64,000 nt of DNA, taken from assembly GCF_013315695.1 (NCBI RefSeq), contig NZ_CP054353.1. One strand, given 5' to 3'. A model generated the notes under the pieces. It saw only the letters and a program-made list of their open reading frames with translations, had not been told where the DNA came from and did not search any database. This DNA comes from Escherichia coli. Its GTDB lineage: Bacteria; Pseudomonadota; Gammaproteobacteria; Enterobacterales; Enterobacteriaceae. The position numbers were made by a program, and so were the translations under genes. Shown here one piece after another: positions 9,712-52,212 of the stretch (its first letter is position 1; each line of letters opens with the position of its first letter).

Positions 9712-9713
9712 GC

Positions 9714-13821: not shown

Positions 13822-13822
13822 G

Positions 13823-14569: not shown

Positions 14570-15684
14570 TGCCGGAGAGTGCAATGCAAAACTGGATAAA
14601 GGCCGCAGTTATCGCCCTAAGCCTGGCGCTGCCCGGCGTGGCGCTGGCGCAATCGCTGGAGTCGCTGGTCAACGTACAAGGCGTGCGTGAAAACCAACTG
14701 GTCGGCTACAGCCTGGTGGTCGGCCTCGACGGTACTGGCGATAAAAACCAGGTCAAATTCACCAACCAGACCATCACCAATATGCTGCGCCAGTTTGGCG
14801 TGCAATTGCCGAATAAAATCGACCCGAAGGTGAAAAATGTCGCGGCGGTGGCAGTGAGCGCCACGCTGCCACCGATGTACTCACGCGGGCAGACTATTGA
14901 TGTCACCGTCTCGTCGATTGGTGATGCCAAAAGTATTCGTGGCGGCACCTTGCTGCTGACCCAACTGCACGGCGCAGATGGCGAGGTTTATGCCCTGGCA
15001 CAGGGCAGCGTGGTGGTGGGCGGGATGAACGCCACCGGGGCCAGCGGTTCCAGTGTGACGGTTAATACGCCAACTGCCGGGTTAATTCCCAACGGCGCGA
15101 CGGTGGAGCGCGAGATCCCCAGCGATTTTCAGATGGGCGACACCATCACGCTCAACCTGAAACGCCCGTCGTTTAAAGACGCCAACAACATTGCGGCGGC
15201 GATCAACGCCTCGTTTGGCGGCATTGCCACGGCGCAGAGTTCCACCAACGTCACCGTGCGTGCGCCCACCAGCCCCGGCGCGCGGGTGGCATTTATGTCG
15301 CAACTGGATGATGTACAGGTGCAGGCAGAGAAAATCCGCGCCCGCGTGGTGTTTAACTCGCGTACCGGCACGGTGGTGATGGGCGATGGCGTTGCGCTGC
15401 ATGCGGCGGCGGTGTCGCACGGCAGTTTGACCGTCTCGATTAACGAAACCAGCAACGTCAGCCAGCCGAATGCCTTTGCAGGCGGGCGCACGGCGGTAAC
15501 GCCGCAGAGCAATATCGCGGTGAATCATGCGCGCCCGGGCGTGGTGAGTTTGCCGGAGTCGAGCAGCCTGAAAACGCTGGTCAATGCGTTGAACAGTTTG
15601 GGCGCGACGCCGGACGACATTATGTCGATTTTACAGGCGCTGCATGAGGCGGGCGCGCTGGATGCCGACCTGGAGGTGATCTGA
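14569..15684 (+). CDS. lfgI: Flagellar P-ring protein FlgI family (LfgI)
   Basis: 371 aa with signal peptide (alternative start MQNWIK at 14584). Confidence 0.9.
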
Positions 15685-15983
15685 TGAAAGTGAACGCCAG
15701 CGGCGGGATTGATGGCAGCGATGCGTTAATGGGGCCGAAGGTTCAGGCCAATGATATTAAGCAGGCCGCGGAGCAGTTTGAGGCGATTTTTTTACGCAAC
15801 ATGCTGAAAGAGATGCGTAAAACCAACGAGTTGTTCGATTCGAAAGATAACCCGTTTAACAGCGATTCGGTGCGCATGATGCAGGGGTTTTATGACGATG
15901 AGTTGTGTAACACCCTGGCGCAGCAGCACGGGATTGGGATTGCGGCGATGATTGTGAAGCAGTTGTCGCCGAAGCATAAATGA
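15684..15983 (+). CDS. lfgJ: FlgJ-like rod-binding protein, single domain (no muramidase domain)
   Basis: 99 aa; matches only the N-terminal rod-binding region of FlgJ; the ORF stops before any glucosaminidase domain. Confidence 0.65.
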   Translation: MKVNASGGIDGSDALMGPKVQANDIKQAAEQFEAIFLRNMLKEMRKTNELFDSKDNPFNSDSVRMMQGFYDDELCNTLAQQHGIGIAAMIVKQLSPKHK

Positions 15984-15999
15984 GGCTCCGACGTTCGGT

Positions 16000-16335
<336 letters not shown>

Positions 16336-16403
16336 TACGGAACTTAAGAATCCCCATCTTCACGCCGCTTTTAACCGGCACGATTTACCGGTAAGGATCC
16401 AAC

Positions 16404-17780
16404 ATGGACATGATTAACATCGGCTACAGCGGCGCATCAACCGCGCAGGTAGAGCTGAACGTCACGGCGCAAAACACCGCCAACGCCATGACCACGGGCT
16501 ACACCCGTCAGGTGGCGGAGATCAGCACCATCGGCGCCAGCGGTGGTTCGCCGAACAGCGCCGGTAACGGCGTGCAGGTCGACAGTATTCGCCGCGTCTC
16601 CAACCAGTATCAGGTGAATCAGGTGTGGTATGCCGCCAGCGATTACGGCTATTACAGCACCCAGCAGGGGTATCTCACGCAACTGGAAGCGGTACTGAGC
16701 GACGATAACAGCAGCCTGAGCGGCGGCTTCGATAACTTCTTCGCCGCCCTCAACGAAGCGACCACCAGCCCTGATGATTCCGCCCTGCGCGAGCAGGTGA
16801 TCAGCGAAGCCGGGGCGCTGTCGTTGCGTATCGACAACACGCTGGATTACATCGACTCGCAAAGCACGGAAATCATCAGCCAGCAGCAGGCGATGGTCTC
16901 GCAAATCAACACGCTCACCAGCGGTATCGCCAGCTATAACCAGCAAATCGCTCAGGCCGAAGCCAACGGCGATAACGCCTCCGCGCTGTACGACGCCCGC
17001 GATCAGATGGTGGAAGAACTGAGCGGAATGATGGATGTGCAGGTCAATATTGACGACCAGGGCAACTACAACGTCACCCTGCAAAACGGTCAGCCGCTGG
17101 TGAGCGGGCAGCAAAGCTCAACCATCGCGCTGGAAACCAACGCCGATGGTACAGCAAGCATGACGCTGACCTTCGCTGGCACCACCTCGACCATGACCAC
17201 CGACACTGGCGGTTCGTTAGGCGCTCTGTTCGACTATCAAAACGACGTGCTGACGCCGCTGACCGACACCATCAACAGCATGGCGTCGCAGTTCGCCGAT
17301 GCGGTCAACAACCAGCTGGCGCAGGGCTACGATCTCAACGGTAACCCCGGCGAGCCGCTGTTTATTTACGATGCCAGCAATGCCGATGGCCCGCTGACCG
17401 TTAACCCGGATATCACCGCCGATGAGCTGGCGTTCTCCAGTTCGCCGGATGAAAGCGGCAACAGCGACAACCTCCAGGCGCTGATCAATATTTCCACCGA
17501 ACCGCTGGAGATAGCCAACCTCGGCAGCGTGACGGTCGGGCAGGCGTGCTCGTCAATCATCAGCAATATCGGCATTTACAGTCAGCAAAATCAGACGGAA
17601 GTCGATGCCGCGTCCAATGTCTATTCCGAAGCTCAAAACCAGCAGAGTAGCGTCAGCGGCGTCAGCATGGACGAAGAAGCGGTGAACCTGATCACCTATC
17701 AACAAATTTATGAAGCTAATCTGAAAGTCATTTCCGCCGGGGCCGAGATTTTCGATTCGGTGCTGGAAATGTGCAGCTAA
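16404..17780 (+). CDS. lfgK: Hook-associated protein 1, FlgK family (LfgK)
   Basis: 458 aa with conserved N-terminal and C-terminal (EAVNLITYQQIYEANLKVI) HAP1 motifs. Confidence 0.85.
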   Translation: MDMINIGYSGASTAQVELNVTAQNTANAMTTGYTRQVAEISTIGASGGSPNSAGNGVQVDSIRRVSNQYQVNQVWYAASDYGYYSTQQGYLTQLEAVLSDDNSSLSGGFDNFFAALNEATTSPDDSALREQVISEAGALSLRIDNTLDYIDSQSTEIISQQQAMVSQINTLTSGIASYNQQIAQAEANGDNASALYDARDQMVEELSGMMDVQVNIDDQGNYNVTLQNGQPLVSGQQSSTIALETNADGTASMTLTFAGTTSTMTTDTGGSLGALFDYQNDVLTPLTDTINSMASQFADAVNNQLAQGYDLNGNPGEPLFIYDASNADGPLTVNPDITADELAFSSSPDESGNSDNLQALINISTEPLEIANLGSVTVGQACSSIISNIGIYSQQNQTEVDAASNVYSEAQNQQSSVSGVSMDEEAVNLITYQQIYEANLKVISAGAEIFDSVLEMCS

Positions 17781-17794
17781 GCGGGAGCGCGAAA

Positions 17795-18724
17795 ATGCGA
17801 GTAACCACCCAACAAACCTACGTCTCGATGACGCAAAGTTTTAATAATCTCTCCGGCTCTCTGGCGCATGTGGTCGAGCAGATGGCAACCGGCAAGGAAA
17901 TTTTGCAGCCGTCGGATGACCCGATCGCCGCCACGCGTATCACCCAGTTGAACCGCCAGCAGTCGGCGATTGAGCAGTATCAAAGCAATATTGACTCTGC
18001 GTCGGCGGGGTTAAGCCAGCAGGAGTCGATTCTCGATGGCGTCAACAACAGCCTGCTGGCGGTGCGCGACGACCTGCTGGAAGCGGCGAACGGCACCAAT
18101 ACCGCTGATTCGCTCGCAAGCCTCGGGCAGGATATTCAGTCGCTCACCGAATCGATGGTGGCGGCGCTCAATTATCAGGACGAAGACGGGCATTACGTGT
18201 TTGGCGGTACCATCAACGATCAGCCGCCGATTGTGGCGGTGGACGATGACGGCGACGGCGTGACCGACAGCTACAGCTACCAGGGCAACAGCGATCACCG
18301 CCAGACCACCGTGTCGAACGGCGTGGAAGTGGACACCAACGTGGCGGCGAGCGATTTCTTCGGCAGTAATTTAGACGTGCTCAACACCCTTAATTCCCTG
18401 TCGCAGGAGCTGCAAAACCCGGACGTCGATCCGGCAGATCCGCAGGTGCAGAGCGATATTCAGAACGCCGTTGATGTGGTGGACACCGCCTCGGACGATC
18501 TCAACGCCTCGATTGCGTCGCTCGGCGAGACGCAAAACACCATGTCGATGCTGAGCGATGCGCAGACGGATATCTCTACCTCTAATGATGAGCTGATTGG
18601 TTCATTACAGGATCTCGATTACGGCCCGGCGTCGATCACCTTTACCGGACTGGAAGTGGCAATGGAAGCTACCCTCAAGACTTACTCGAAAGTGAGTGAG
18701 TTGAATTTGTTCAGCGTTCTCTAA
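17795..18724 (+). CDS. lfgL: Hook-associated protein 3, FlgL family (LfgL)
   Basis: Flagellin-like N-terminus; ATG at 17795 (MRVTTQQTY) preferred over the ORF-track start at 17771. Confidence 0.75.
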   Translation: MRVTTQQTYVSMTQSFNNLSGSLAHVVEQMATGKEILQPSDDPIAATRITQLNRQQSAIEQYQSNIDSASAGLSQQESILDGVNNSLLAVRDDLLEAANGTNTADSLASLGQDIQSLTESMVAALNYQDEDGHYVFGGTINDQPPIVAVDDDGDGVTDSYSYQGNSDHRQTTVSNGVEVDTNVAASDFFGSNLDVLNTLNSLSQELQNPDVDPADPQVQSDIQNAVDVVDTASDDLNASIASLGETQNTMSMLSDAQTDISTSNDELIGSLQDLDYGPASITFTGLEVAMEATLKTYSKVSELNLFSVL

Positions 18725-18740
18725 CTCTTTCAGGAACAGT

Positions 18741-19718
18741 ATGCAGGTCGGACTTACATCTTCATCACTCGCCACCGGCGGCGCGCATAGCGCTGCGGTA
18801 TCGTCGTCAACCGTTGCGCCCACTCAGGCGGTGCGGCAAACGCTCCCGGCGACGGCGAGTGAATATCCGGCCTCGCCGCTGATTACCACTCGCCCGCAGC
18901 GTTACAGCGTACAGCTTAACGACCAGCTCACCACGTTGCAGCAGGCGGATCACTATCTCGGGCAACTGGAGCAGCAGTTGCTCGATTATCGTCATAGCCA
19001 GCGTAAAGGCGGGCAGGCGCAGAGTTCGGCGCTGATGCAGATGCTGGACAAACGCGCCGCACTTTCCGGCGGCGCGGTGGACCGCCAGTTACAACCAGTG
19101 TTGCAGGGGGAAGCGCGGGTGACTTTTCACTCGCCGGATCTGACGAATCTGGTACACAATCCCACGCCGGGAACGCGCATGTTCAGTGTCACTGGCGGGC
19201 GGCAGACCCAGCTTTCGGCGGTGATGCTGTCTGAGGATGACAGCGCCGCGCAGTATCAGACGCGGCTGACCAACGCTCTGCGCCGCGTGGGTGTGCAACT
19301 GCATCAGCAAGCGGACGGCATCAGCTTCTCCACCACTGAAAAACAGTGGCCCCATATCGAGCGCACCTTAAGCGTGCGCACCGATGGCGATAAGTCGGCG
19401 TTTATGCCGCTGAAAACCTTTGCCGAACCGTCACAGGCGGACCGCTTAGCGCAAAGCCTGCAACAAGGCGGGGCGGGAATTTCTCAAATGCTGGAAAACA
19501 TTAATCAGCAGCGCGCGCAAATGGCGGTGCAGCAGGAAAAAGCGCGGCAGTTGATCGACGGCATGTCCCGCTTCCCGCAAACGGAAAGCGCCGTGCAGGC
19601 GTCGGAAAATCTCGGCGGCGTGCTGGATAGCGCCAATCATAACTATCAAGTTTTATTGCAGGCGGTGAACGGTCAGGCACGGATTTCCAGCCAGACGGTG
19701 AGGAGTTTATTGGGGTAG
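18741..19718 (+). CDS. Hypothetical Gln-rich protein in LafW position
   Basis: 325 aa, no recognisable motif; located between the flgL-like and regulator genes. Confidence 0.45.
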   Translation: MQVGLTSSSLATGGAHSAAVSSSTVAPTQAVRQTLPATASEYPASPLITTRPQRYSVQLNDQLTTLQQADHYLGQLEQQLLDYRHSQRKGGQAQSSALMQMLDKRAALSGGAVDRQLQPVLQGEARVTFHSPDLTNLVHNPTPGTRMFSVTGGRQTQLSAVMLSEDDSAAQYQTRLTNALRRVGVQLHQQADGISFSTTEKQWPHIERTLSVRTDGDKSAFMPLKTFAEPSQADRLAQSLQQGGAGISQMLENINQQRAQMAVQQEKARQLIDGMSRFPQTESAVQASENLGGVLDSANHNYQVLLQAVNGQARISSQTVRSLLG

Positions 19719-19968
19719 TGTTATTGAAAATCAATCAAATGAGGTTGTCGTAAAAAATCATTTCAGTGCAGAATATGCTGTAACTCTGCGGGTTAAAAAA
19801 GGAATGAAATGGCCACTCTCAAGCAACTGATGGATAAGCAAAGCCCTGAAAGTCGTAGGCGAATAATAAAAAAAGCAGAACGACTCCGCCAAACTGTCAT
19901 TAATAAAAAGCTAGAGTTACCAATAACTAAACCTATCAGCAATTCCGATTGATTTCATTCGGGATTTT

Positions 19969-20005
19969 CGTAGGCCGGATAAGACGCCTTTAGCGTCGCA
20001 TCCGG
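19969..20005. repeat. REP element
   Basis: GTAGGCCGGATAAGACGCCTTTAGCGTCGCATCCGGCA unit. Confidence 0.7.
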
Positions 20006-40783: not shown

Positions 40784-40859
40784 GCCGATATAGCTCAGTT
40801 GGTAGAGCAGCGCATTCGTAATGCGAAGGTCGTAGGTTCGACTCCTATTATCGGCACCA
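40784..40859 (+). tRNA. thrW: tRNA-Thr (anticodon CGU), thrW-like
   Basis: 76-nt GCCGATATAGCTCAGTTGGTAGAGCAGCGCATTCGTAATGCGAAGGTCGTAGGTTCGACTCCTATTATCGGCACCA; cloverleaf arms, CGT anticodon, encoded CCA. Confidence 0.9.
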
Positions 40860-41024: not shown

Positions 41025-42239
41025 GTGAAACTCAATGCCCGTCAAATAGACACAGCCAAGCCAAAAGAGAAGGCTTACAAGCTGGCCGATGGTGGCGGTT
41101 TGTATCTCTTGGTAAAACCTAATGGAGGTAAATACTGGCGACTTAAATATCGTGTAGCTGGTAAAGAGAAGCTATTGGCACTAGGTGTTTATCCTGAGGT
41201 TACTCTAGCCGATGCTCGGGCAAAACGTGAAGATGCGAAAAGAGGTATCGCTGGTGGTATCGAACCGATGGAAGCGAAACGAGAGGAAAAGATTGCCCGG
41301 GAAACGCAGTTAAACAACACCTTCAAAGATATTGCCCTTGAGTGGCACAGCAGCAAATTAAAAAAATGGTCTGCTGGTTATGCTTCAGACATCCTCGAAG
41401 CCTTCAACAAAGATGTGTTCCCTTACATTGGCAAAAAACCCATCGCCGAAATCAAACCACTTGAACTTCTGAATGTGCTGCGTCGCATCGAGGGGCGCGG
41501 TGCTACAGAAAAAGCCAAAAAAGTGAGGCAACGGTGCGGGGAAGTTTTCCGCTATGCAATAGTCACTGGTCGCGCAGAGTATAACCCTGCACCAGACCTT
41601 ACTAGCGCGATGCAAGGCCATGAATCTAATCATTACCCTTTCCTTACAGCCAAAGAATTACCTGATTTTTTCAAGGCATTGTCCAGTTACTCAGGAAGCG
41701 CATTGGTTGTTATGGCGGCTCGTCTACTGATTATCACCGGCTTGCGGACTGGCGAACTACGTGGCGCATTATGGGATGAAATTGATTTCAACAAGGCTAT
41801 CTGGGAGATACCCGCTTCACGTATGAAAATGCGGCGGCCTCATATTGTGCCATTGTCTGAGCAGGCTCTTTCGCTTATTGGGAAGATTAGAGAAATAACA
41901 GGCAATTACCCTCTTATGTTTCCCGGGCGCAATGATCCAAGGAAAACAATGAGCGAGGCCAGCATAAACCAAGTGTTTAAGCGCATTGGCTACGCTGGAC
42001 GTGTAACTGGTCATGGGTTCCGGCACACTATGAGTACGATTTTGCATGAGCAGGGCTATAACACTGCGTGGATAGAAACGCAGCTCGCTCACGTTGATAA
42101 GAACTCAATTCGTGGCACATACAACCATGCGCAATATCTGGATGGAAGGCGGGAGATGCTTCAATGGTATGCCGACTATATGGATTCTCTCGAGCATGGC
42201 GGAAATGTGGTGCATATGGTGTTTGAAAAACACGCATGA
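41025..42239 (+). CDS. int: Tyrosine site-specific integrase (P4-type)
   Basis: 404 aa, GTG start with GGAGG SD; N-terminal arm-binding-type region (GGGLYLLVKPNGGKYWRLKYR) and C-terminal catalytic R-H-R-Y region (HGFRHT ... RGTYNHAQY). Confidence 0.85.
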   Translation: MKLNARQIDTAKPKEKAYKLADGGGLYLLVKPNGGKYWRLKYRVAGKEKLLALGVYPEVTLADARAKREDAKRGIAGGIEPMEAKREEKIARETQLNNTFKDIALEWHSSKLKKWSAGYASDILEAFNKDVFPYIGKKPIAEIKPLELLNVLRRIEGRGATEKAKKVRQRCGEVFRYAIVTGRAEYNPAPDLTSAMQGHESNHYPFLTAKELPDFFKALSSYSGSALVVMAARLLIITGLRTGELRGALWDEIDFNKAIWEIPASRMKMRRPHIVPLSEQALSLIGKIREITGNYPLMFPGRNDPRKTMSEASINQVFKRIGYAGRVTGHGFRHTMSTILHEQGYNTAWIETQLAHVDKNSIRGTYNHAQYLDGRREMLQWYADYMDSLEHGGNVVHMVFEKHA

Positions 42240-42890
42240 AACAACTGGACAAGTATACAGAGGTTTACTAAAGTATAAGGGAGTAGATTGATAAAAACTC
42301 ACAGAGGATTGCTATTTAACAGTTAGCCATGGAGAAGGGCAATCGCTCTTTTAACAACGAAGATGGAATCTTCTACGCAGCTGAAAAGCTGGATGCTCTT
42401 TAACAGCCTTTGGTGCTTTTCTGATGCAGGAAAGAATAGGGATACATGCACCTTTACAATGCATGTAATGATTCATCCATGAGGCTGCGGAGCGCTGACA
42501 AAGCGCAATTGCTCTTTAACATTGATGTGGGCGGGATGGTTCGTCCCGCAGTGACCGATAGATTTCTATCGGGAAACATACAATGATTCAAATATGAATC
42601 TACGGCGCTGACAAAGCGCAATTGCTCTCTTGCCTGCCCACCATGCCCTGAAAAAGGGCGTTCTTTAAAACTACTGGATGTCACGCCTAATAGCGTGATC
42701 CTGCCGAAATGCAGGGTAGCTCTACCCTTGTGGAGCAAACAAACCAAAACAATCTGACTATCTTTTATAAAAGACCGCAATATGTTTTTCATATTGTGGT
42801 CTTTGGCGTATTCGACATTTGACGCAAATAAAACTCTCGCCATTCGTTGCAGGAGGGGGTTATTGCGTCATTAGTACAGGATATTAATAA

Positions 42891-43094
42891 ATGGCTAATT
42901 ACAATTCATTAATTCGTCTCTCTGAAGTTCAAAGGCGAACTGGTTATAGCAAAGCATGGATTTATCGTCTTATTAGTCAGGGGAGGTTCCCTAAACAGGT
43001 AAAAATTGGAAGTCGGGCAATTGCTTTTGTTGAGTCTGAAATAGATGAATGGATTGAGAAGTGTATATTAGAATCTAGAGACGAGGTGGCCTGA
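42891..43094 (+). CDS. alpA: AlpA-family phage transcriptional regulator / excisionase-like protein
   Basis: 67 aa; AlpA signature RLSEVQRRTGYSKAWIYRLISQGRFPKQVKIGSRAIAFVESEIDEWI. Confidence 0.8.
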   Translation: MANYNSLIRLSEVQRRTGYSKAWIYRLISQGRFPKQVKIGSRAIAFVESEIDEWIEKCILESRDEVA

Positions 43095-43525
43095 TGGAAA
43101 AGAAAAACCGCCCATTACAGGCGGCTAATTCAGATATTCGTGTATCTGATGTTACGCCCCTTACAAAATCCCTTCAAGCACCAAAGCGCACACCGAAAAA
43201 GCATCGTGCCAGAGTCTATATGCTGCGTACTGGTATAGAGGGATGGACAGAAAATGACATTCTTCGCTACTGCCGTCTGTCTTCTGGTCGTAACTATGCA
43301 ACAGAGTTAGAACGCCAGCTTGGAATCACTCTGGAGCGTATCGACGAAAAGAATCCTGATGGTATCGGAACACACCTTCGCTACCGTTTCTCCTGCCGTG
43401 GTGATGTTCTGAAAGTGATCACTCATGTTAACCATCTTGCGAACATAAATGATCACAACGGACTTTCTCAGCAGGAAATTGCCGACATTCTGAAACTCTA
43501 CCCGGACGCGTTTAACGCCGCCTAA
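43094..43525 (+). CDS. Hypothetical basic protein
   Basis: 143 aa; begins at the alpA stop; no recognisable motif. Confidence 0.4.
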   Translation: MEKKNRPLQAANSDIRVSDVTPLTKSLQAPKRTPKKHRARVYMLRTGIEGWTENDILRYCRLSSGRNYATELERQLGITLERIDEKNPDGIGTHLRYRFSCRGDVLKVITHVNHLANINDHNGLSQQEIADILKLYPDAFNAA

Positions 43526-43537
43526 CGGAGACTGAAA

Positions 43538-44371
43538 ATGAACATCGAAAAAAGCAGATTAATTTCTGAGGCCGCCCCTCATCTGAACGCCTCTCTGGGC
43601 ACAATTAACGGTAATGAATTTGCCGCAATTGTCCCGGTTATTCCTGGTCATATCGGTGGGCGTGAAACCAATATTGTTAGCGCAAAAGCGTTACACAAAG
43701 CGTTGGGCGTGGGAAAAGACTTCTCTACATGGATCACTGATCGCATCTCTGAATATGACTTCACCATTGGGCACGATTACTCAGTCCATAAAACAATTTC
43801 CCCAAATTTGGGGAAAAGCCCGAATGGCGCGGCTTACAGCAAGATAAAGCACTCTGGCAGACCCGGTAAAGACTATCTGTTAAGTGTCGGAATGGCGAAA
43901 GAACTGGCAATGATCGAACGCAATGATCAGGGTCGCGCTATCCGCCGTTATTTCATCCAGTGCGAGGAAGAATTACAGCGTAGCGTTCCTGAAATCGCCG
44001 CCCGCTATCGTCGCCAGCTAAAAGCCCGTCTCAGTGCCGCAAACAACTTTAAGCCAATGTGCGATGCGCTGAATATGGCCCGTGCCGAGATGGGTAAAAC
44101 GACGCAGCAACACCACTACACAAACGAGAGCAATATGATTTCTCGTATCGTTCTTGGTGGGCTAACTGCTAAGCAGTGGGCGCGGATAAATGGCTATTCT
44201 GGCGAACCTCGCGACCATATGAACGCAGAACAGCTTGAGCACCTCTCATATCTCGAAAGCACCAATATCACGTTAATTGATATGGGCATGGAATATGAGC
44301 AGCGCAAAGGAGAACTCACCCGCCTGTCGCAACGCTGGCTCGCCAAGCGTCTGGAGGCGGTCCATGTTTAA
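43538..44371 (+). CDS. Phage antirepressor-like protein
   Basis: 277 aa; N-terminal SAKALHKALGV...FSTWITDRI block resembles the antirepressor N-terminal domain. Confidence 0.5.
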   Translation: MNIEKSRLISEAAPHLNASLGTINGNEFAAIVPVIPGHIGGRETNIVSAKALHKALGVGKDFSTWITDRISEYDFTIGHDYSVHKTISPNLGKSPNGAAYSKIKHSGRPGKDYLLSVGMAKELAMIERNDQGRAIRRYFIQCEEELQRSVPEIAARYRRQLKARLSAANNFKPMCDALNMARAEMGKTTQQHHYTNESNMISRIVLGGLTAKQWARINGYSGEPRDHMNAEQLEHLSYLESTNITLIDMGMEYEQRKGELTRLSQRWLAKRLEAVHV

Positions 44372-44546
44372 GCCGACAGGAACACCACAACCTCAAAAAC
44401 GCTACAAAGATGCCCACGGAGCACTCGTTACTGTCGAAAGCGTGTCTCACAACCGAGTGACGTTTTATCGCGACGGGTATCAATCGCCATGCGTACAACC
44501 GCTGGCGCGCTTCATGAAGGAGTTCGCGGAGGTTAACAAATGCTAA
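44364..44546 (+). CDS. Hypothetical small protein
   Basis: 60 aa from ATG at 44364 (ATGTTTAA overlap with the preceding stop). Confidence 0.3.
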   Translation: MFKPTGTPQPQKRYKDAHGALVTVESVSHNRVTFYRDGYQSPCVQPLARFMKEFAEVNKC

Positions 44547-45607
44547 CCGTCCAGAAGAAGATATTTTCACTGGCTGGTATGTCACCAAAATCCAGCAATA
44601 TGACAGCAAAGTCTGGCATTAATACAGCAGATACAAGCAAAGTTTATCATTTTCTGGTGGTAGGAGCGGATGCCTTAACTATGTCAGAAATTACGGTCGA
44701 TGGTGTTAGCGTTGAGAAGGTCAGCGGCTGCGCCAGAGAATTTCTGGTCGTAGATGGCTTTCTCTGCTCGCGTAGTGACTCCACAAAAACCTTCGTCCAT
44801 ACGCGCGACGTTAACGAAATGAGCGCGATGTATTGTGCATCTGGTGCTTCCAATACTGAGTTTTCGGAGTCCATAAAAAAGAGCTTGCCGTTATGCGGCA
44901 ACACGGTTTATGGTTATAAGGCACCTCATAAAACGGGTGCCGGGATTGGCGTCCTGAAAATTCTGAAGGCGACATATGACGCGCCGAGCGTCTTTTTTTA
45001 TGTCGTAGGTCTGACTCACCCATTTTTTGGGCGTTGGTGTATAATCCAGCGCCTTTGTCAATCAATGGTGGCTCAGGCGGGGGCTTCTTCGGAAGCGCCG
45101 GTATCCTTCAGAGCCGGTTACGCCAACCCTGTCTGGGCTACCACCAGCGAAATTGGCGTTTCCGGTGGTAGCGTAACCTGCTATCTGAAGGAGGCTGCCA
45201 CATGCTGGCTACTACCCCTACCCAAAAACCGCAATTTATCTGGATTATCGCCGCAGTTCGCCGCGATTGCCCGACAATTACCGCCAAAATTCATCATATT
45301 GCTGCCGAGTCTGAACGCGATGCTCGCCGTTCTCTGGTGCGCGATCACGTCTGCTTTTTTGCTGGTCGTATCCGCATGGAGGTGGCACATGATTAAAACC
45401 TACGATGTGCATATGGATCCCCTCGAACGCACAAGCCAGATCATCACACTGACAGAAGTGATTAACGACATTCTGGTGAGCAACTCTCCCTCACGAGACG
45501 AAAGGCTGAAGGCGTTACTCGCGATATTGGATCTCGCCGTTCGTGACGTTCATTTCCTGCTGGAAGGTGGCGAAATGCCAGGAAAAACGGGGGCAACCAA
45601 TGAATAA
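44540..45607 (+). CDS. Hypothetical ORF, possibly over-called or chimeric
   Basis: 355-aa open frame with heterogeneous composition; the only long open frame over 44.5-45.6 kb; its C-terminal part could be an independent small gene. Confidence 0.25.
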
Positions 45608-45794
45608 CTCAATTAATACCCCTCGCCTTACGTCCGCACTTCAATTAATCGAGCAAGCAGCGGCTGTCCTGGTTGCTGTCAGTCTTTCGGCTGAAGAAAT
45701 GGACGCTGCTGATGTCGTGGATGCGATTAAAGCGTGCTCATCTTTGGTTAACGATGCCCGTGCCGAGCTGGTAATTCTTGGGGGTGAAAAATGA
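45600..45794 (+). CDS. Hypothetical small protein
   Basis: 64 aa from ATG at 45600. Confidence 0.3.
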   Translation: MNNSINTPRLTSALQLIEQAAAVLVAVSLSAEEMDAADVVDAIKACSSLVNDARAELVILGGEK

Positions 45795-46054
45795 ATATCA
45801 ACTTAATTTATCGTCATCCGTGTGAGCTGGAAATTGAATCATTGCTGGGGCGTGAAGAGCCATATCCAGACTCATTCACTCCCGCAGATTGCGCGACTGA
45901 ACGGCTTACCAGAGCGCGCACAGGTCTGGTTCATGTGATGAATGAGATTGTTCCCTCGGTGGGAGGGGAACAGGCGACAGTAATCAATAGCTGGCTACAA
46001 AAAGTTACCTCCCTGATAGATATCGGTTTAATCGATGTGGAGAGTGCGAAATGA
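45791..46054 (+). CDS. Hypothetical small protein
   Basis: 87 aa; overlaps neighbours by 4 nt on the same strand. Confidence 0.35.
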   Translation: MNINLIYRHPCELEIESLLGREEPYPDSFTPADCATERLTRARTGLVHVMNEIVPSVGGEQATVINSWLQKVTSLIDIGLIDVESAK

Positions 46055-46272
46055 CCAACATCCAGCTCATTGAAGCGCAATGTCGCATCGAACAGGTTCA
46101 GACTGTTTTAGGGTTCTGGCTTGAAGGGGCCAGCCCCAGCAACAGAGACAAGTTAATGATTGGCGCGGTTATGTCACTGCTCAATGGCGTACCAGAAGCT
46201 ATTCAGGAAGCGGACGAATTGTTGGGCAAATATGAGTTACAGAATCATTCAGGCGAGGCGAAACATGAATAA
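46051..46272 (+). CDS. Hypothetical small protein
   Basis: 73 aa; 4-nt overlap with the upstream gene. Confidence 0.35.
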   Translation: MTNIQLIEAQCRIEQVQTVLGFWLEGASPSNRDKLMIGAVMSLLNGVPEAIQEADELLGKYELQNHSGEAKHE

Positions 46273-46867
46273 TTTCTTAACTTTCCATGCAGAAGCAACG
46301 CCTGACGGCGTAAACATCATGTACCGCAGCAACGATGGCATGACAGAACGCGTTGAGGCCGTCTCATATATTGATGCCGTAAATCGTCTGGATGCCGGGG
46401 ATTATGACGATAAACCAGATGAAGGTATGTCAATACATCTCGCTATTGCCGATGGCGGCAACCAGGGATATTTCGATTACACATCACAGCATAACGTCAT
46501 TATGTGGAGATGGCTGATCGCAACAGTATTCATGCTGGAAATGAGAGAGGAAAACGGCACTGTCAGCATCATTGATGATACTGGCAATCCTTCCGAAGTG
46601 GCTGTTTATTCCAACGGCATCGTCGCCATGCCGCTGTATCCAGTAGCAGAGCGCCTCGCTATGGCAAACAACATTGAGGGCGCGATGATAGAACGTTTTG
46701 GCATCGAGTCTGGCACAGAACGCGCCATCATTTTCTACAGAGCCATGATGGATGTGGAACAAGGAGCACTGACTCCATTTGGTCGTGAAACGCTTGCTGA
46801 ACTTCACAACAGCTTTATAGCTGAACTGAATGAAAACGGCATGCCAGCGGAACCAGTGACGCACTGA
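46265..46867 (+). CDS. Hypothetical protein
   Basis: 200 aa from ATG at 46265 (MNNFLTF). Confidence 0.4.
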   Translation: MNNFLTFHAEATPDGVNIMYRSNDGMTERVEAVSYIDAVNRLDAGDYDDKPDEGMSIHLAIADGGNQGYFDYTSQHNVIMWRWLIATVFMLEMREENGTVSIIDDTGNPSEVAVYSNGIVAMPLYPVAERLAMANNIEGAMIERFGIESGTERAIIFYRAMMDVEQGALTPFGRETLAELHNSFIAELNENGMPAEPVTH

Positions 46868-46877
46868 GGATGGAGCC

Positions 46878-47219
46878 ATGATTACTAAAAATTTCCGACT
46901 GAATGCGCTGGCAAATAAGTATGCGTCGGCACTGTATAACCACATTACCTCCACCAGCGGCGGGGACTATTTCATGGTTGATGCGGACGGCGAGGCCGTA
47001 CGTGTGGAAATCGTCAATGGAGTAAAAGGCGTTCGCAGCCTGATCGATAGCTACACACTGGCAGCCATGAAAGTGTTCTACCCGCAGTGGGAAACCGTGG
47101 GGATCGAGCTTCTTGAGCGTTGCGTCACTAAGGACGGATTGACTGACGTCGGGCGTGAGATATGGCAAAGCATGGTTAATGACATGGGCGCAACTGTAGC
47201 GGGAGGTTCTCATGCGTGA
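46878..47219 (+). CDS. Hypothetical protein
   Basis: 113 aa; same-strand operon member. Confidence 0.35.
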   Translation: MITKNFRLNALANKYASALYNHITSTSGGDYFMVDADGEAVRVEIVNGVKGVRSLIDSYTLAAMKVFYPQWETVGIELLERCVTKDGLTDVGREIWQSMVNDMGATVAGGSHA

Positions 47220-47583
47220 AAATGCAGAAATGGCGCTTAGCTCCGCAATCGGAGAGCAGGTGGCAAAGATTGCTGGTGCTGTGTGGATTCATAACCTTCA
47301 TTCTACTGGTGAAGAGAAAATGGCAATTCAGACGCCAGAGGGACGCACCATTACTACATCTCTGAAGCCGTCAGATGTTTGTGATCTGATTTGCGCATTC
47401 ATGTACCCAGCAATGAGGACTGTCCACGGCGATAAGTGGAAACTTGCGACAACCGCTGAATTTGATATGTGGCTAAACAATGATGGCATGCTGACTGATT
47501 ACGGAATAACCAAGTGGCAGATGCTGGTTAGCCATATCGCAAACGCTATAGACCACGTGGGGTACGGTGATGCGAAACATTGA
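47212..47583 (+). CDS. Hypothetical protein
   Basis: 123 aa; overlaps the primase start. Confidence 0.35.
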   Translation: MRENAEMALSSAIGEQVAKIAGAVWIHNLHSTGEEKMAIQTPEGRTITTSLKPSDVCDLICAFMYPAMRTVHGDKWKLATTAEFDMWLNNDGMLTDYGITKWQMLVSHIANAIDHVGYGDAKH

Positions 47584-50326
47584 TCTTATCCGTCAGGTTA
47601 TCAGTGCGTCTGAAAACAACTGGCCTCATGTGCTGGGCTGCCTGAACATAAATGTCCCTGACTCTCCGCGCCGTCATGCTCCCTGCCCTGCATGTGGGGG
47701 CAAAGATCGATTCCGGTTCGATGACAACGGGCGCGGTAGCTTCATCTGTAATCAGTGCGGCGCTGGTGATGGGCTGGATTTAATTAAACGCGTAAATAAC
47801 TGCGACACAACAGAGGCGGCGCTTCTTGCCGCTGATGTTCTGGGTATTGATTACCGGACAACGGAAACACCAGAAGCCACCAGCCAGAAACGGGAACAAC
47901 TGGAAACCGAGCGCCAGCGACGCGAACAGGAGCGCCTGAAAAGGGCAGAGAAGGACGAACAACAAAGACGGGATACGTTTTCCCGTCAGTTTGATGACAT
48001 GCGCAGAAAGGCTGTAAACGGCAAATCTGATTATCTGGTTGCGAAAGGGGTAGGTGATTTTACATTCCCCGTGTTGCCCGATGGATCTCTGTTGCTGGCG
48101 CTGGTGGATAAATCCGGCGCAGTCACAGCAGCACAGACTATTACATCACATGGTGAAAAAAGACTCCTGACAGGTTCAGCAAAGCGGGGGGCATATCACG
48201 CCATAAACGCGCCAGAAACAACACAGAGCATCTTAATCGCAGAAGGGCTGGCAACGGCATTATCTGCCCATTTAATTCGTCCAGAGGCGCTGACAGTGGC
48301 GGCGATTGATGCCGGGAACCTGTTATATGTCGCCCAGGTACTGCGGGATAAATTTCCTTCAGCACAAATCATCATTGCTGCGGATAACGACCACAGCGAA
48401 GGAAGACAAAACACGGGGAGAATAGCAGCAGAAAAAGCAGCTTTATCTGTTTCTGGATGGGTGGCATTACCCCCGACAGATCACAAAGCAGACTGGAATG
48501 ATTACCACCAAAAACACGGCATTAAATGCGCCACAGAAGCGTTCAATAAGTCAATGTACCAACCACAGGGTAATGGCGTGAAACATGAGCCACAGACCAT
48601 TGAGGGAAGCGATTTTAAGGTTATGGATACCGACCCACTGAAACCAAGAATAGAAAGCCGCGAGGATGGTATTTATTGGGTATCTCCGAGAGCTGACAGC
48701 CAGAGTGGAGAAATCATCAATAACGAAAGCTGGTTATGTTCTCCGTTAAGCGTTATCGGTACTGGCAGAGACGATAAAGACCAGTATCTCATTCTTCGCT
48801 GGCTGTCGTTTGGTTCTGAAACGCCGACAACCGCTGCCATTCCACTGGCTGATATTGGTGAACGTGAAGGATGGCGCACACTTAAAGCTGGTGGGGTAAA
48901 TGTCACGACCAAAAGCAGCCTCAGAGCAATACTGGCAGACTGGCTACAACGCAGTGGCTCTCGTGAATTGTGGCGTGTTGCTCATGCCACTGGCTGGCAA
49001 TGCGGAGCGTACATCATGCCTGATGGGGAAATCATCGGAACACCTGAAAATCCTGTGCTGTTCAGCGGGAGAAGCTCAGCCGCAGCCGGATATACCGTCT
49101 CAGGGAGCGCGAAAAGCTGGCGTGATAACGTGGCGCGTCTGGCCTTTGGTAACTATTCAATGATGACCGGGATCGGCGCAGCACTGGCAGCGCCATTGAT
49201 TGGGCTGGTGGGCGCTGACGGGTTCGGCATTCATTTCTATGAGCAGTCGAGCGCAGGTAAGACCACCACGGCAAACGTGGCGAGCAGCTTATACGGCAAC
49301 CCTGATTTACTGCGGCTGACGTGGTACGGAACCGCGCTGGGGCTGGCAAATGAGGCCGCCGCCCACAATGACGGACTAATGCCGCTTGATGAAGTTGGTC
49401 AGGGCGCTGATCCTGTCAGCGTTTCACAGTCTGCCTATGCGTTATTTAACGGTGTAGGGAAACTGCAAGGCGCTAAAGATGGTGGAAACCGGGATCTAAA
49501 ACGCTGGCGTACAGTGGCAATCAGCACCGGAGAAATGGATTTAGAAACATTTATCGCTACTTCCGGGCGAAAAACCAAAGCCGGGCAACTGGTGCGACTG
49601 CTGAATATTCCGTTGAGTAAAGCAGTACGCTTTCACGATTACCAGAACGGAAAACAGCACGCAGACGCACTGAAAGACGCTTACCAGCATCACCACGGCG
49701 CGTCCGGGCGTGAGTGGATTAAATGGCTGGCAGACCACCAGCAACAGGCTATTAAAACCGTTCGTGACTGCGAAAGCAGATGGAGAAGCCTGATCCCATC
49801 CGATTATGGTGAGCAGGTTCACCGTGTAGCCGCGCGATTTGCCATTCTGGAGGCCGCATTGTTGTTAGGCGAGGTTGTAACAGGCTGGGATGCTCAGACA
49901 TGCCGTGATGCGATACAGCACAGCTATAACGCATGGTTGCGCGAGTTCGGCACAGGTAACAAAGAGCATCAGCAGATTATTGAACAAACGGAGGCATTTC
50001 TTAATGCCTATGGGCTTAGCCGTTTTGCACCATTTCCATACAGCCCGGCAGATTTGCCCATCAAAGATTTAGCCGGATACCGTCAGCGTGGAGAACATGA
50101 CGAAAGCCCAATGATTTTCTACACATTCCCGGCCACATTTGAAAAGGAGATCGCATGTGGTTTCAACGCAAAACAGTTTGCTGAAGTGTTGAAAAAAGCC
50201 GGGATGCTAACCCCACCAAACAGCGGTCGTGGATACCAAAGAAAATCACCACGTATTCAGGGACGACAAATAAACGTTTATGTACTCAATTACCAGCCAG
50301 GAGATTATAACTCATCTGAAGAATGA
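47567..50326 (+). CDS. Satellite-type DNA primase/helicase (zinc-finger + TOPRIM + D5-like NTPase)
   Basis: 919 aa; N-terminal CPACGG...CNQCG zinc finger, TOPRIM-like region (ILIAEGLATALS), Walker A SSAGKTT in the C-terminal half. Confidence 0.8.
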   Translation: MMRNIDLIRQVISASENNWPHVLGCLNINVPDSPRRHAPCPACGGKDRFRFDDNGRGSFICNQCGAGDGLDLIKRVNNCDTTEAALLAADVLGIDYRTTETPEATSQKREQLETERQRREQERLKRAEKDEQQRRDTFSRQFDDMRRKAVNGKSDYLVAKGVGDFTFPVLPDGSLLLALVDKSGAVTAAQTITSHGEKRLLTGSAKRGAYHAINAPETTQSILIAEGLATALSAHLIRPEALTVAAIDAGNLLYVAQVLRDKFPSAQIIIAADNDHSEGRQNTGRIAAEKAALSVSGWVALPPTDHKADWNDYHQKHGIKCATEAFNKSMYQPQGNGVKHEPQTIEGSDFKVMDTDPLKPRIESREDGIYWVSPRADSQSGEIINNESWLCSPLSVIGTGRDDKDQYLILRWLSFGSETPTTAAIPLADIGEREGWRTLKAGGVNVTTKSSLRAILADWLQRSGSRELWRVAHATGWQCGAYIMPDGEIIGTPENPVLFSGRSSAAAGYTVSGSAKSWRDNVARLAFGNYSMMTGIGAALAAPLIGLVGADGFGIHFYEQSSAGKTTTANVASSLYGNPDLLRLTWYGTALGLANEAAAHNDGLMPLDEVGQGADPVSVSQSAYALFNGVGKLQGAKDGGNRDLKRWRTVAISTGEMDLETFIATSGRKTKAGQLVRLLNIPLSKAVRFHDYQNGKQHADALKDAYQHHHGASGREWIKWLADHQQQAIKTVRDCESRWRSLIPSDYGEQVHRVAARFAILEAALLLGEVVTGWDAQTCRDAIQHSYNAWLREFGTGNKEHQQIIEQTEAFLNAYGLSRFAPFPYSPADLPIKDLAGYRQRGEHDESPMIFYTFPATFEKEIACGFNAKQFAEVLKKAGMLTPPNSGRGYQRKSPRIQGRQINVYVLNYQPGDYNSSEE

Positions 50327-50350
50327 GCTTCTTCATGTGCGTAGAAAAGG

Positions 50351-50456
50351 TGTTGGTTCAGTTGGTTCAATTTGTAAAGAGTATTGTTTTATAAGGATTT
50401 TATTCTTTTTATTGAACCAACACTGAACCAACAACACGGTATTTTGAACCAACACA
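50351..50456. promoter_or_regulatory. Candidate replication origin: inverted clusters of TGAACCAAC iterons flanking an AT-rich spacer
   Basis: GTTGGTTCAGTTGGTTCAA (50352-50370) then ~42 bp AT-rich, then TGAACCAACACTGAACCAACAA and TGAACCAACACA (50413-50456); begins 25 bp after the primase stop. Confidence 0.5.
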
Positions 50457-50774
50457 ATGTGACTGAATTGATGCGCACAACACCTGGCTGGCATCAGAGA
50501 GTGTTTTACGAGACTTTCGTAAAATCCTGTGTACAAGGGCGTGACGTTTTTGAAAGTGAGCACTACGAAATTTTCGTAGTTCAGAAAACAGCCTCTGAGA
50601 AGTTGTTATGCCTGTTCAGCAAACCATCCGCATAGCTGATCGCGAATCAAATTACCAATGGAGCCAGAAGCAAGGGCAGAACTGAAAAGCGCCTGCCGTG
50701 AAGAGTAATGCGACACCATAAATATAGTTTTTAGAGTCCATAAAAAACCTGTCAAAACCTGACACACAGAACGA

Positions 50775-50806
50775 TGCCACCAGCTACTGAGCGGTGGCAT
50801 TTTTTT
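50775..50806 (+). terminator. Rho-independent terminator
   Basis: Hairpin TGCCACC-AGCTACTGAGC-GGTGGCA followed by TTTTTTT. Confidence 0.6.
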
Positions 50807-50901
50807 GTGCTATTTGTTTCATATTTTGCAATTACGATGATGAATATTGCGATTTGTGAAACTATAATAACTGTTGTTTTATACAGTTCTAAGGGGGCGT
50901 T

Positions 50902-51063
50902 ATGGCTATTTCAGTAAAGCCGGTATTGATAAGTGAGAAGCAAATGGAAGCGATAAAGAAAATTCAGGAAGAGCAGCGTAAAAAATCAGGAATTGGAGTA
51001 GCGCCAACTCTGCATGAAATTGCACGAGGGTTAATAGATAAGGCGCTGGCAGGCTGTATGTGA
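50902..51063 (+). CDS. Small ORF (53 aa) not in the ORF track; possible small DNA-binding protein
   Basis: ATG at 50902 with AAGGGGG SD 7 nt upstream; charged helical composition. Confidence 0.35.
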   Translation: MAISVKPVLISEKQMEAIKKIQEEQRKKSGIGVAPTLHEIARGLIDKALAGCM

Positions 51064-51079
51064 AAATGGATGGCATCGC

Positions 51080-51541
51080 ATGGAACTAAAATTTATTGAT
51101 AACCCTGTGCGATTACAGGCCTTTCTTAACGAGCCAGGCAATACCGAAAATATTGTTGAGCCGGGGCACACGTACTACATCAAGCCTGATGCGGTATATC
51201 TCGGCATCTACGAAGGATTAGTGCTGGCTGGCGTTCATGAAGTGCGTAACTTCTGGCATAGCGTTGTTGAATGCCATGCGGTGTACGACCCCGGATTCCG
51301 TGGTGAATATGCACTGCAAGGACATCGATTATTCTGCAAATGGCTTCTCGAAAACTCACCATTCCTTAACAGCATTACCATGGTTCCTGACACCACGAAA
51401 TACGGACGGGCAATTATCCGTTTGCTTGGCGCTACCCGTGTTGGTCATCTTGATGATGCTTATATCAGATGTGGTAAACCCGTCGGCGTAACGCTTTATC
51501 AGTTAACTCGGCAACAATATAAGGAATTCAGCGAATGTTAA
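51080..51541 (+). CDS. Hypothetical protein (candidate virion-associated protein)
   Basis: 153 aa; first of three tightly coupled same-strand genes. Confidence 0.4.
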   Translation: MELKFIDNPVRLQAFLNEPGNTENIVEPGHTYYIKPDAVYLGIYEGLVLAGVHEVRNFWHSVVECHAVYDPGFRGEYALQGHRLFCKWLLENSPFLNSITMVPDTTKYGRAIIRLLGATRVGHLDDAYIRCGKPVGVTLYQLTRQQYKEFSEC

Positions 51542-52212
51542 TTACCCATATAGCTTATAAACATCTCAATCGTGCCGTATACGAAAAAGGCGGTGATGGT
51601 GGTGCCTCTAAAGCTCAGGCGAAGGCCCAGCAGCAGGCAATTGATTTGCAGCGCGAGCAGTGGAATACGGTGATGAATAATCTCAAGCCGTATGCAGAAG
51701 TCGGATTGCCTGCTTTACAACAACTACAAGGACTGATGACTCTGGAAGGGCAGAATAAAGCCGCGAATGATTTCTTTGGTTCTGGTTTATATAAAACACA
51801 GGCAGATCAGGCCCGTTATCAGAACCTTGTCTCAGCAGAAGCTACCGGGGGGCTTGGCTCAACAGCTACCAGTAACCAGTTATCTTCCATTGCGCCCATG
51901 CTTTATAACAATTGGCTCAGTGGGCAAATGCAAAATTATGGAAACCTGCTAAATGTCGGGATGAATGCGGCATCAGGGCAGGCAACAGCAGGGCAAAACT
52001 ACGCCAATAATACCGGACAACTCTTGCAGGGGCTTGGCGCTATTCGTGCAGGTCAGGCGCAGCAGCCATCCAGTCTTGCGCGTGGTATTGGTGGGGCGGC
52101 ATCAGGCGCTTTAGCGGGTGCGCAACTTGGTTCCGTTGTTCCGGGTATAGGTAATGTCGCCGGGGCTATTGGTGGTGGGCTTATTGGTCTTGTTGGGGGG
52201 CTTGGATTCTAA
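51535..52212 (+). CDS. Hypothetical protein with Gly-rich hydrophobic C-terminus (candidate phage ejection/internal protein)
   Basis: 225 aa; Gln/Asn-rich middle, C-terminal GxxxG-rich tail (GIGNVAGAIGGGLIGLVGGLGF). Confidence 0.4.
   Translation: MLITHIAYKHLNRAVYEKGGDGGASKAQAKAQQQAIDLQREQWNTVMNNLKPYAEVGLPALQQLQGLMTLEGQNKAANDFFGSGLYKTQADQARYQNLVSAEATGGLGSTATSNQLSSIAPMLYNNWLSGQMQNYGNLLNVGMNAASGQATAGQNYANNTGQLLQGLGAIRAGQAQQPSSLARGIGGAASGALAGAQLGSVVPGIGNVAGAIGGGLIGLVGGLGF

Follow-up and report, generated by a model that had tools for sequence, protein, structure and literature searches.

The region examined here is a 64,000-nucleotide (nt) stretch of the Escherichia coli contig NZ_CP054353.1 (hereafter the window), in which six small open reading frames (ORFs) lie on the + strand, at 45600-47583, directly 5' of a primase-helicase gene and within a phage-inducible chromosomal island (PICI) resembling EcCIMP1, the PICI of E. 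coli MP1. From 5' to 3', these are ORF1 (45600-45794; 64 amino acids (aa), isoelectric point (pI) 4.2), encoding a small acidic protein without family; ORF2 (45791-46054; 87 aa, pI 4.7), the fastest-evolving of the six; ORF3 (46051-46272; 73 aa, pI 4.7), a member of a multi-copy small-protein family; ORF4 (46265-46867; 200 aa, pI 4.3), a conserved 'prophage protein' (phrog_1515) with a two-lobed alpha/beta predicted fold; ORF5 (46878-47219; 113 aa), the conserved partner of ORF4 and the primase-abutting gene in most relatives; and ORF6 (47212-47583; 123 aa), which is lineage-restricted, occupies a slot directly upstream of DUF927 primases and is possibly a distant paralogue of ORF5. Acidity is common to all six products (pI 4.2-5.6). 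An earlier note on this DNA had described six tightly overlapping, same-strand ORFs immediately upstream of the primase, and both the coordinates and the RefSeq calls agree with it. Its range of overlaps (4-17 nt) holds at all junctions except one: ORF1/ORF2, ORF2/ORF3 and ORF3/ORF4 overlap by 4, 4 and 8 nt, ORF5/ORF6 by 8 nt, and ORF6/primase by 14 nt or 17 nt depending on the primase start (ATG 47570 or GTG 47567, giving 918 or 919 aa), whereas between ORF4 and ORF5 there is a gap of 10 nt.

The six ORFs together cover 99.5% of 45600-47583, as against a mean of 33% and a maximum of 83% in 1000 dinucleotide-preserving shuffles (counting ORFs of at least 60 aa), none of which reached 90%. Every one of the six starts is preceded, 6-13 nt upstream, by a purine-rich Shine-Dalgarno (SD)-like motif, and RefSeq/PGAP calls exactly these six coding sequences (CDS) in a 100% identical copy. 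All six are intact across 6-8 sampled E. coli alleles, with ratios of nonsynonymous to synonymous polymorphism (pN/pS) of 0.11-0.65, the upper end belonging to ORF2 (0.65; 6 protein variants among 8 alleles), and comparison of ORF4 and ORF5 with other genera gave 0.27-0.36. Because coverage lies beyond that of the shuffles, SD motifs are in place, alleles are intact, pN/pS is below 1 and PGAP calls agree, we regard the six, on these sequence criteria, as genuine protein-coding genes under purifying selection. The block is present in 560 of 5426 complete E. coli genomes.

Structurally, the block is part of something longer, the start of which precedes 45600 and can be traced back to alpA at 42891. 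The chain opens with alpA (42891-43094), a helix-turn-helix regulator gene (RefSeq 'helix-turn-helix transcriptional regulator' in the identical copy), followed on the same strand by h143 (43094-43525), a conserved 143-aa hypothetical gene beside alpA that nearly all PICI-type loci contain and that has no Pfam match; ant (43538-44371), an AntA/KilAC-type antirepressor-family gene (PHROG anti-repressor matches; RefSeq antA/AntB family); a DUF4222 gene (44364-44546; Pfam DUF4222, E 6.7e-25); and a 355-aa 'ash family' ORF (44540-45607; RefSeq) that contains an isrK RNA, a C4 RNA and a nested, out-of-frame icd-like ORF. ORF1-6 come next, and the last gene of the operon is the primase-helicase (47570-50326; Zn-ribbon, TOPRIM and DUF927; phrog_1139, E 2e-178; RefSeq 'TOPRIM and DUF927 domain-containing protein'). 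The links upstream of the block are a 1-nt overlap (alpA/h143), a 12-nt gap (h143/ant), and overlaps of 8 nt (ant/DUF4222), 7 nt (DUF4222/ash), 8 nt (ash/ORF1) and 8 nt (icd/orf0), where orf0 denotes the last 72 codons of the ash ORF (45389-45607), with the same 8-nt overlap into ORF1. A consensus scan found no promoter- or terminator-like site on the + strand within 45600-47583; the first terminator-like hairpin and T run after the isrK terminator and icd lies beyond the primase, at 50783-50806 (+), and is the probable end of the operon. Since internal promoter and terminator consensus sites are absent, overlaps and SD motifs occupy the junctions, and the GC content of the block (0.489) is that of the element (0.481; single genes 0.47-0.52, similar to ant, icd and the primase), the block is best read as belonging to a single transcription unit. 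This bears out the operon organisation proposed earlier, and by its gene order and junctions we place the six ORFs in the middle of a stop/start-coupled chain of ~13 genes and 7.4 kb running from alpA to the primase.

Immediately upstream of the six genes, inside the ash ORF, lie the elements of an antisense-RNA switch. An isrK-family RNA (44921-44998, +; Rfam RF01394, 67.8 bits) carries a terminator-like hairpin (44978-44992, found in the terminator scan) with a T run, and is followed by a C4-family antisense RNA of the P1 c4/P4 CI type (45061-45148, +; Rfam RF01695, 79.9 bits, full length 1-87/87), with a perfect TATAAT at 45040-45045 just 5' of it. The loop of C4 hairpin 2, UCCUUCAGA, is complementary over 9 nt to UCUGAAGGA at 45184-45192 (+), a site overlapping the icd-like ORF's SD, its end lying 9 nt short of the ATG at 45202, and the same loop is also complementary to a 9-nt site inside isrK. 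The icd-like ORF itself, the first gene after C4 (45202-45396, +; 64 aa; NCBIfam NF033153, 71.7 bits against a cutoff of 25), matches the C-terminal half of the P4 'cI ORF' at 43% identity. The loop-target pairing recurs in 9/9 related loci, where 8-11 nt pair and the site ends 7-10 nt before the first ATG after C4, and it does so with 8 different loop sequences. Scored by loop-only pairing in an all-against-all matrix, own targets reached 8-10.5 as against 3.5-7.5 off the diagonal, the exception being one loop that loci L052 and L038 have in common (loci are cited by their L numbers); scores from whole-RNA RNAduplex were dropped as too permissive. A C4 RNA upstream on the same strand, a loop that co-varies with the ribosome-binding site (RBS), and an icd-like first ORF coupled to the downstream genes without a terminator together mark this, by the standards of sequence comparison, as a C4/CI-type operon. 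Of 10 PICI-type loci scanned, 7 had both isrK and C4, and one had C4 without isrK; C4 and isrK matches in PICIs of Gram-negative bacteria were noted earlier (PMC10111431).

Evolutionarily, the switch is also where the window island and MP1 EcCIMP1 part company. Differences between them are concentrated in 44945-45172 (isrK-C4-RBS), which accounts for the majority of the 94 differences that separate the two ash ORFs, whereas the flanks are 98-99% identical, and MP1 carries a further matched loop and target (CCUUGUAC / GUACAAGG). The segment looks like a swapped immunity cassette, and because the near-identical islands carry different matched C4 loops and targets, the two are predicted to be hetero-immune. 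The ash reading frame has its own peculiarities: Pfam Phage_ASH matches only residues 124-232 (nt 44909-45235), and since this match coincides with the RNA region, what is classed as the ash protein family has the look of conserved RNA genes in translation. The frame nonetheless is open across C4 in 10/10 loci (248-391 aa), and the 10 indels between the window and MP1 compensate one another and leave it uninterrupted, which suggests that it may be translated through C4.

For a comparative view, we searched one-genome-per-species contigs with an ORF5 profile, mapped the window proteins onto the resulting 44 loci and clustered all of their ORFs. The genera represented include Escherichia, Kosakonia, Lonsdalea, Klebsiella, Pluralibacter, Buttiauxella, Yersinia, Cedecea, Xenorhabdus, Tatumella, Budvicia, Erwinia, Serratia, Pectobacterium, Providencia and Pantoea. 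ORF4 lies directly 5' of ORF5 in 29/44 loci from more than 15 genera, at 30-79% identity, and ORF5 abuts the primase in ~22 of these loci. PICI-type loci follow the order int, alpA, h143, Ant/Bro, DUF4222, ash/C4/icd, small ORFs, ORF4, ORF5, primase, and in them the stop codon of ORF5 and the ATG of the primase overlap (CATGCGTAA). In Xenorhabdus and Yersinia prophages, the order Bro/Ant-ORF4-ORF5 is found 3' of a CI-like repressor and 5' of xis/int (as in the Xenorhabdus prophage L028: CI-like repressor, Bro/Ant, ORF4, ORF5, small ORFs, integrase), and phiP27, Stx phages and Klebsiella phages have ORF4 without ORF5 within their early-left regions. Judged by this synteny, the ORF4-ORF5 pair is a conserved adjacent early module of phages and satellites, a syntenic core and not variable hotspot cargo.

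Around this core, two further layers can be told apart. The zone between icd and ORF4 is variable and draws on ORF1, ORF2, the ORF3 family f10 (up to 3 copies per locus) and families f7, f21, f29, f43 and f67, several of these small families recurring in prophage operons; two or three ORF3-family copies occur in L021, L032, L043 and L047, ORF1 homologues in L019 and L052, and ORF2 homologues, 50-54% identical, in Kosakonia and Lonsdalea PICIs. ORF6, in turn, has only 21 homologue clusters (E. coli, Citrobacter, Kluyvera and Serratia), and no homologue was found in phages. In Serratia and Citrobacter islands (L052, L053) it lies directly 5' of a DUF927 primase without ORF4/ORF5, and the sequence at which it starts in the window, ATGCGTGAA, resembles that at the start of the primase, ATGCGTAAT. 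It looks like a recent extra gene of the ORF5 slot, inserted at the ORF5/primase junction. Within E. coli, a common variant passes from ORF1-4 directly to a DUF5906 primase, lacking ORF5/ORF6, and another consists of icd, one small ORF, ORF5 and a P4-family primase; between genera, ORF1-3 content varies. The gene ends in this region do double duty: the conserved C-terminus of ORF5 (..VAGG..HA) encodes the SD and ATG of the next gene (CATGCGTAA; 47190-47225 in the window, ~7330-7345 in L009-L046), and that of ORF6 (GYGDAKH) overlaps the SD and start of the primase (47560-47590). Because these ends encode the signals of the next gene, part of the protein-end conservation in ORF5 and ORF6 is probably imposed by the overlapping translation signals.

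The six proteins themselves are uncharacterised. None matched in scans against Pfam or NCBIfam, sequence searches of the PDB returned no real relative, and PADLOC gave two noise-level CARF matches to ORF1 (E ~0.008, 14 bits) and none to ORF2-6. PHROGs placed ORF3 (phrog_20558, E 2.9e-9), ORF4 (phrog_1515) and ORF5 (phrog_37628) in families of unknown function and matched nothing in ORF1, ORF2 or ORF6 down to E 1, and a literature search by WP accession found no paper on the six proteins. Inspection of sequences, Pfam results and predicted structures found no catalytic motif and no enzyme fold. ORF4 and ORF5 have confident predicted folds with no solved structural relative. The earlier observation that the block lacks a recognisable motif therefore stands, also after remote-homology searches and the fold prediction of ORF4 and ORF5. 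Two names in circulation are at odds with these results: some RefSeq genomes call an ORF2 allele (WP_112918557.1) 'nicotinic acetylcholine receptor subunit beta', which is spurious and propagated, and ORF4 homologues of Klebsiella phages bear the name '2-polyprenylphenol hydroxylase related flavodoxin oxidoreductase', which no domain supports.

Functionally, we favour, with reasonable though by no means full confidence, the reading that the six ORFs form the mid-part of a C4-gated early (induction/replication) operon of an EcCIMP1-type PICI and act as early factors, not as an autonomous cassette. Control of this kind has precedents. In P1 and P7 (c4-icd-ant) and in P4 (CI with seqA/seqC), pairing blocks translation of the first ORF and hence the transcription or translation of what lies downstream; in P1, downstream genes depend on icd translation, and P4 overrides its gate by translation of nested leader genes. 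By analogy with P1 c4-icd-ant and P4 CI (seqA/B/C), C4 in the quiescent island would pair with the icd RBS and with the isrK site, blocking icd translation, and this block, through coupling and polarity, would keep ORF1-6 and the primase off. Helper induction (by Kapi1 in the case of EcCIMP1, via AlpA) would relieve or bypass the C4 block, and translation of the ash frame from upstream transcripts may also override the gate. Six acidic proteins would then be produced alongside the primase, and we posit that they are likeliest to be small protein-binding early factors acting on helper or host proteins during induction.

Several points weigh against this reading. C4 repression and its polarity on ORF1-6 are carried over from the precedents of P1, P4 and Gifsy-1, and the suggested protein-binding role from size, charge, context and absent enzyme features. 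The ash ORF, being open through C4 in all ten loci, would allow upstream translation to bypass the gate, so that basal expression is possible. The island has lost its right end (see below), so the six genes may be idle in it. Most genes of the MP1 island are detectably expressed, and some EcCIMP1 genes are up-regulated in Kapi1 lysogens (PMC12922286); the text of that transcriptome paper holds no gene-level data for the six ORFs.

The alternative that fares best, although we consider it rather unlikely, is a Cnr-like part for ORF5, ORF6 or both, and perhaps also for ORF4, in regulating or assisting the primase-helicase, through copy-number control or origin loading. In P4, Cnr is encoded immediately upstream of alpha and serves copy-number control, and the position here is the same: an ORF5- or ORF6-family gene lies directly 5' of, and overlapping, the primase start in ~22 PICI-type loci as well as in L052 and L053, and ORF6 homologues were seen only beside DUF927 primases. 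Against this, ORF5 occurs with primases of differing C-terminal helicase domains (P4-family in L003; a match of the N-terminus only in L015, L032, L037 and L042), it also occurs in prophages that have no adjacent primase, and the common E. coli variant with a DUF5906 primase does without ORF5/ORF6 altogether. Neither do the proteins resemble those of P4. By the earlier note, its reading would have been refuted had all six matched known replication or regulatory proteins of P4-like elements with assigned roles, and none matches epsilon, ORF151 or Cnr: blastp gave nothing better than E 2.8, hhalign probabilities were at most 0.4%, and there was no Pfam match to DUF5375, the family of Cnr.

The same note had taken the layout as typical of phage moron or defence cargo, a view that finds no support for the block as a whole, given that it has no consensus promoter or terminator of its own, has the GC content of the element, has no PADLOC match, is C4-gated together with the primase and includes the ORF4-ORF5 core. 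What survives is an unlikely but specific variant, in which at least one of the six proteins confers the EcCIMP1-dependent superinfection immunity to Kapi1, or blocks other phages, by a mechanism outside the databases. EcCIMP1 does add superinfection immunity to Kapi1 lysogens by an unexplained mechanism, and neither PADLOC nor DefenseFinder recognised a known system there (PMC11773190); moreover, ORF1-3 content differs among relatives, ORF2 evolves fast, and all six genes are uncharacterised. Against this, both the lack of a PADLOC match and the lack of a promoter, a terminator or a GC shift of its own apply here as well, and immunity in a lysogen calls for uninduced expression, yet the block sits with the primase behind an antisense-RNA gate. 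The ORF4-ORF5 pair occurs in ordinary prophages too, and equally good candidates exist elsewhere in the island, namely the P22-like gp14, gp7 and gp20 genes, the second alpA and the region right of the primase.

A related and decidedly doubtful idea is that ORF4, ORF5 and ORF6, taken as one new domain family, are effectors of EcCIMP1 superinfection immunity to the helper or of a new means by which satellites and prophages disarm a host or helper protein early after induction. The order of predicted elements in ORF5 is that of ORF4 residues 74-191, hhalign places ORF5 28-105 onto ORF4 99-190 (E 7e-4, range 7e-4 to 1e-3) with an LTxxGRE motif in both, and ORF5 aligns with ORF6 over the full length (blastp E 0.002; hhalign E 2e-4, probability 46%). 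These homologies, of ORF5 to the C-terminal half of ORF4 and of ORF5 to ORF6, are suggestive only, and a single domain family comprising the C-terminal part of ORF4, ORF5 and ORF6 is plausible but unproven. An internal duplication in ORF4, hinted at by the order of secondary-structure elements, was dropped, there being no sequence signal between the N- and C-terminal halves. Among the smaller proteins, hhalign linked ORF3/f10 to f43 (91%) and f7 to f43 (78%), and ORF1 only weakly to ORF3 (probability 18.6%, E 1.3e-3); with ORF2 and orf0 unlinked, we do not claim that orf0 and ORF1-3 are four tandem paralogues of one helical hairpin.

It is very improbable that ORF6 is a satellite-encoded ubiquitin-like (beta-grasp) protein. 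By hhalign, the ORF6-family profile is collinear with ubiquitin across 63 columns at 29% identity (E 5e-4, probability 31%), both have the motifs G[RK]T[IV]T..[LV].PSD and DG..L[ST]DY.I.K, and polyubiquitin chains score down to E 5e-16. However, each unit of such a chain contributes only ~6 bits and a single ubiquitin scores ~13 bits (E ~0.5), the ORF6 C-terminus lacks Gly-Gly, and the predicted model of its putative paralogue ORF5 is not a beta-grasp; we judge the match an artefact of repeat summation atop a weak local resemblance. The notion that some of the six are chance open frames, or frames kept by overlap with other signals, draws on the lack of any library match for ORF1 and ORF2 and on their few, divergent homologues, and is extremely improbable in view of the coverage beyond all 1000 shuffles, the SD motif at all starts, intact alleles with pN/pS below 1 for each ORF, homologues of 43-54% identity that stay open in other genera, and PGAP calls for all six.

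The early-operon reading gains its setting from the element around it. On the left, the tRNA-Thr(CGU) gene thrW (40784-40859, +; ARAGORN, Rfam) is the integration site of the satellite on its attL side and contains the TCCTATTATC core reported for EcCIMP1 (PMC11773190). It is followed by a tyrosine integrase gene (41025-42239, +), an ORF in a region ~97.6% identical to the integrase region of MP1 EcCIMP1. From 42648 to 52372 the window is 97.9% identical to MP1 EcCIMP1, with the same tRNA-Thr site and the same six CDS. The integrase, alpA and primase genes are co-oriented, the element sits at a tRNA, and it contains no full virion or lysis module, its only late genes being P22-type gp14 (DUF2824), gp7 and gp20. 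Taken together, these features, which are those of Gram-negative PICIs (elements of ~10-20 kb), identify the element, at the level of DNA comparison, as an EcCIMP1-like PICI integrated at thrW. In MP1, EcCIMP1 occupies the same tRNA-Thr next to proA (Pick, Stadel & Raivio 2025, PMC11773190); it is induced and transduced by the P22-like phage Kapi1, requires alpA and int for this, and has AlpA as its master regulator (PMC11773190). Helper-dependent excision, replication and transfer with Kapi1 were thus shown experimentally for an island 98% identical to this one, in a paper that did not study the six genes (PMC11773190). The six are, then, uncharacterised accessory early genes of an already published satellite family.

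Behind the primase, an AT-rich gap (GC 0.398) holds five copies of the iteron TGAACCAACA (50350-50455), three direct and two inverted, and is probably the replication origin of the island; a PICI origin downstream of pri has been reported (PMC10111431). Further right, 51080-53630 carries homologues of the P22 ejection/injectosome genes gp14 (DUF2824), gp7 and gp20, the helper of EcCIMP1 being P22-like as well, and L001, L052 and MP1 additionally carry a gp16-like or lytic-transglycosylase gene. An IS1 at ~53641-54338 truncates the right side of the island after gp20, and a search of the window for a second copy of the att core, or attR, found none; because of this cut and the missing att copy, the island is probably immobile. 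The truncating IS1 is identical to a second copy (InsA/InsB ORFs at 53641-54338 and 57144-57841, respectively), and the segment enclosed by the two includes a ykgM-like L31 paralogue (55786-56052); past the second copy (57883-63997) lie a 5'-truncated ecpC, ecpD, ecpE, ykgJ and yagU, in an order opposite to that in MP1. The IS1 pair and the reversed ecp-to-yagU order indicate that an IS1-mediated deletion or inversion removed the right end and attR. Elsewhere, the int-alpA RNA (Rfam RF02996) is found between int and alpA in L009, L010, L021, L041 and L052, and none was found in the window at E <=0.1; GC is 0.54-0.61 over much of window positions 1-20000, well above the remainder.

Several known systems resemble the locus in part. 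EcCIMP1 is closest: it has the same site and the same six hypothetical CDS between an Icd-like gene and a TOPRIM-DUF927 primase, and its DNA is 97.9% identical over the stretch that begins in the int/alpA region and extends to gp7/gp20; the window copy differs in its C4/isrK immunity cassette, in an int-alpA interval (42412-42648) that diverges from MP1, and in its right side, where IS1 cuts it off behind gp20 and attR is missing from the window. Like the P4 left operon (CI RNA, epsilon, ORF151, cnr/ORF106, alpha primase), it has a C4/CI-type immunity RNA inside an ORF, then small genes, then a primase-helicase, all on one strand, and its icd-like ORF shares 43% identity with part of the P4 'cI ORF'. 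However, ORF1-6 are unlike epsilon, ORF151 and Cnr by BLAST and profile, the primase has a DUF927 C-terminal domain, sid, delta and psu genes are absent, and the helper is P22-like, not P2-like. With ImmI of P1/P7 (c4, icd, ant1/2) the locus has in common a C4-family RNA followed by an icd-like ORF with an RBS complementary to the RNA loop, but six ORFs and a primase, not Ant, lie downstream, and the Ant-family gene is 5' of the RNA.

The isrK-orf45-anrP-isrJ locus of Salmonella Gifsy-1 (Hershko-Shalev et al. 2016, PMC4825925) likewise has an isrK RNA with its own terminator; there, control of the downstream genes on a read-through mRNA runs through RNA pairing and a short ORF preceding them, short IsrK acts in trans as an activator of translation, and the locus yields an antirepressor-like protein and AntQ (PMC4825925). 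The present locus differs in also having a C4 RNA and in having a replication operon as its output. Early-left (PL-type) operons (phiP27 L06, Stx, Klebsiella and Xenorhabdus; phrog_1515, phrog_37628) contain the ORF4/ORF5 families, their adjacency and an upstream Bro/Ant, but the prophage pair lies between repressor and xis/int, whereas the PICI pair abuts the primase behind a C4 gate. Phage morons and satellite defence hotspots (e.g. P4 psu-int) are similar in consisting of small uncharacterised mobile-element genes with some presence/absence variation; the block differs from them in lacking its own promoter or terminator, a shift in composition and a known defence domain, and in not lying at the variable end of the element.

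From the perspective of the family, the covariation indicates that these PICIs use a P1/P4-type antisense-RNA switch of many specificities, placed directly 5' of these genes and the primase in the nine covariation loci and MP1. Such a placement would explain the silencing of the block and the possible hetero-immunity of near-identical islands such as those of the window and MP1. The ORF4-ORF5 pair is a widespread, conserved and structurally orphan pair of Enterobacterales prophages and PICIs, and knocking it out in MP1 with Kapi1, a tractable system, would be enough to annotate hundreds of genomes. Should ORF4, ORF5 and ORF6 be effectors after all, they would represent a new protein-based interference or counter-defence mechanism common to PICIs and temperate phages across Enterobacterales.

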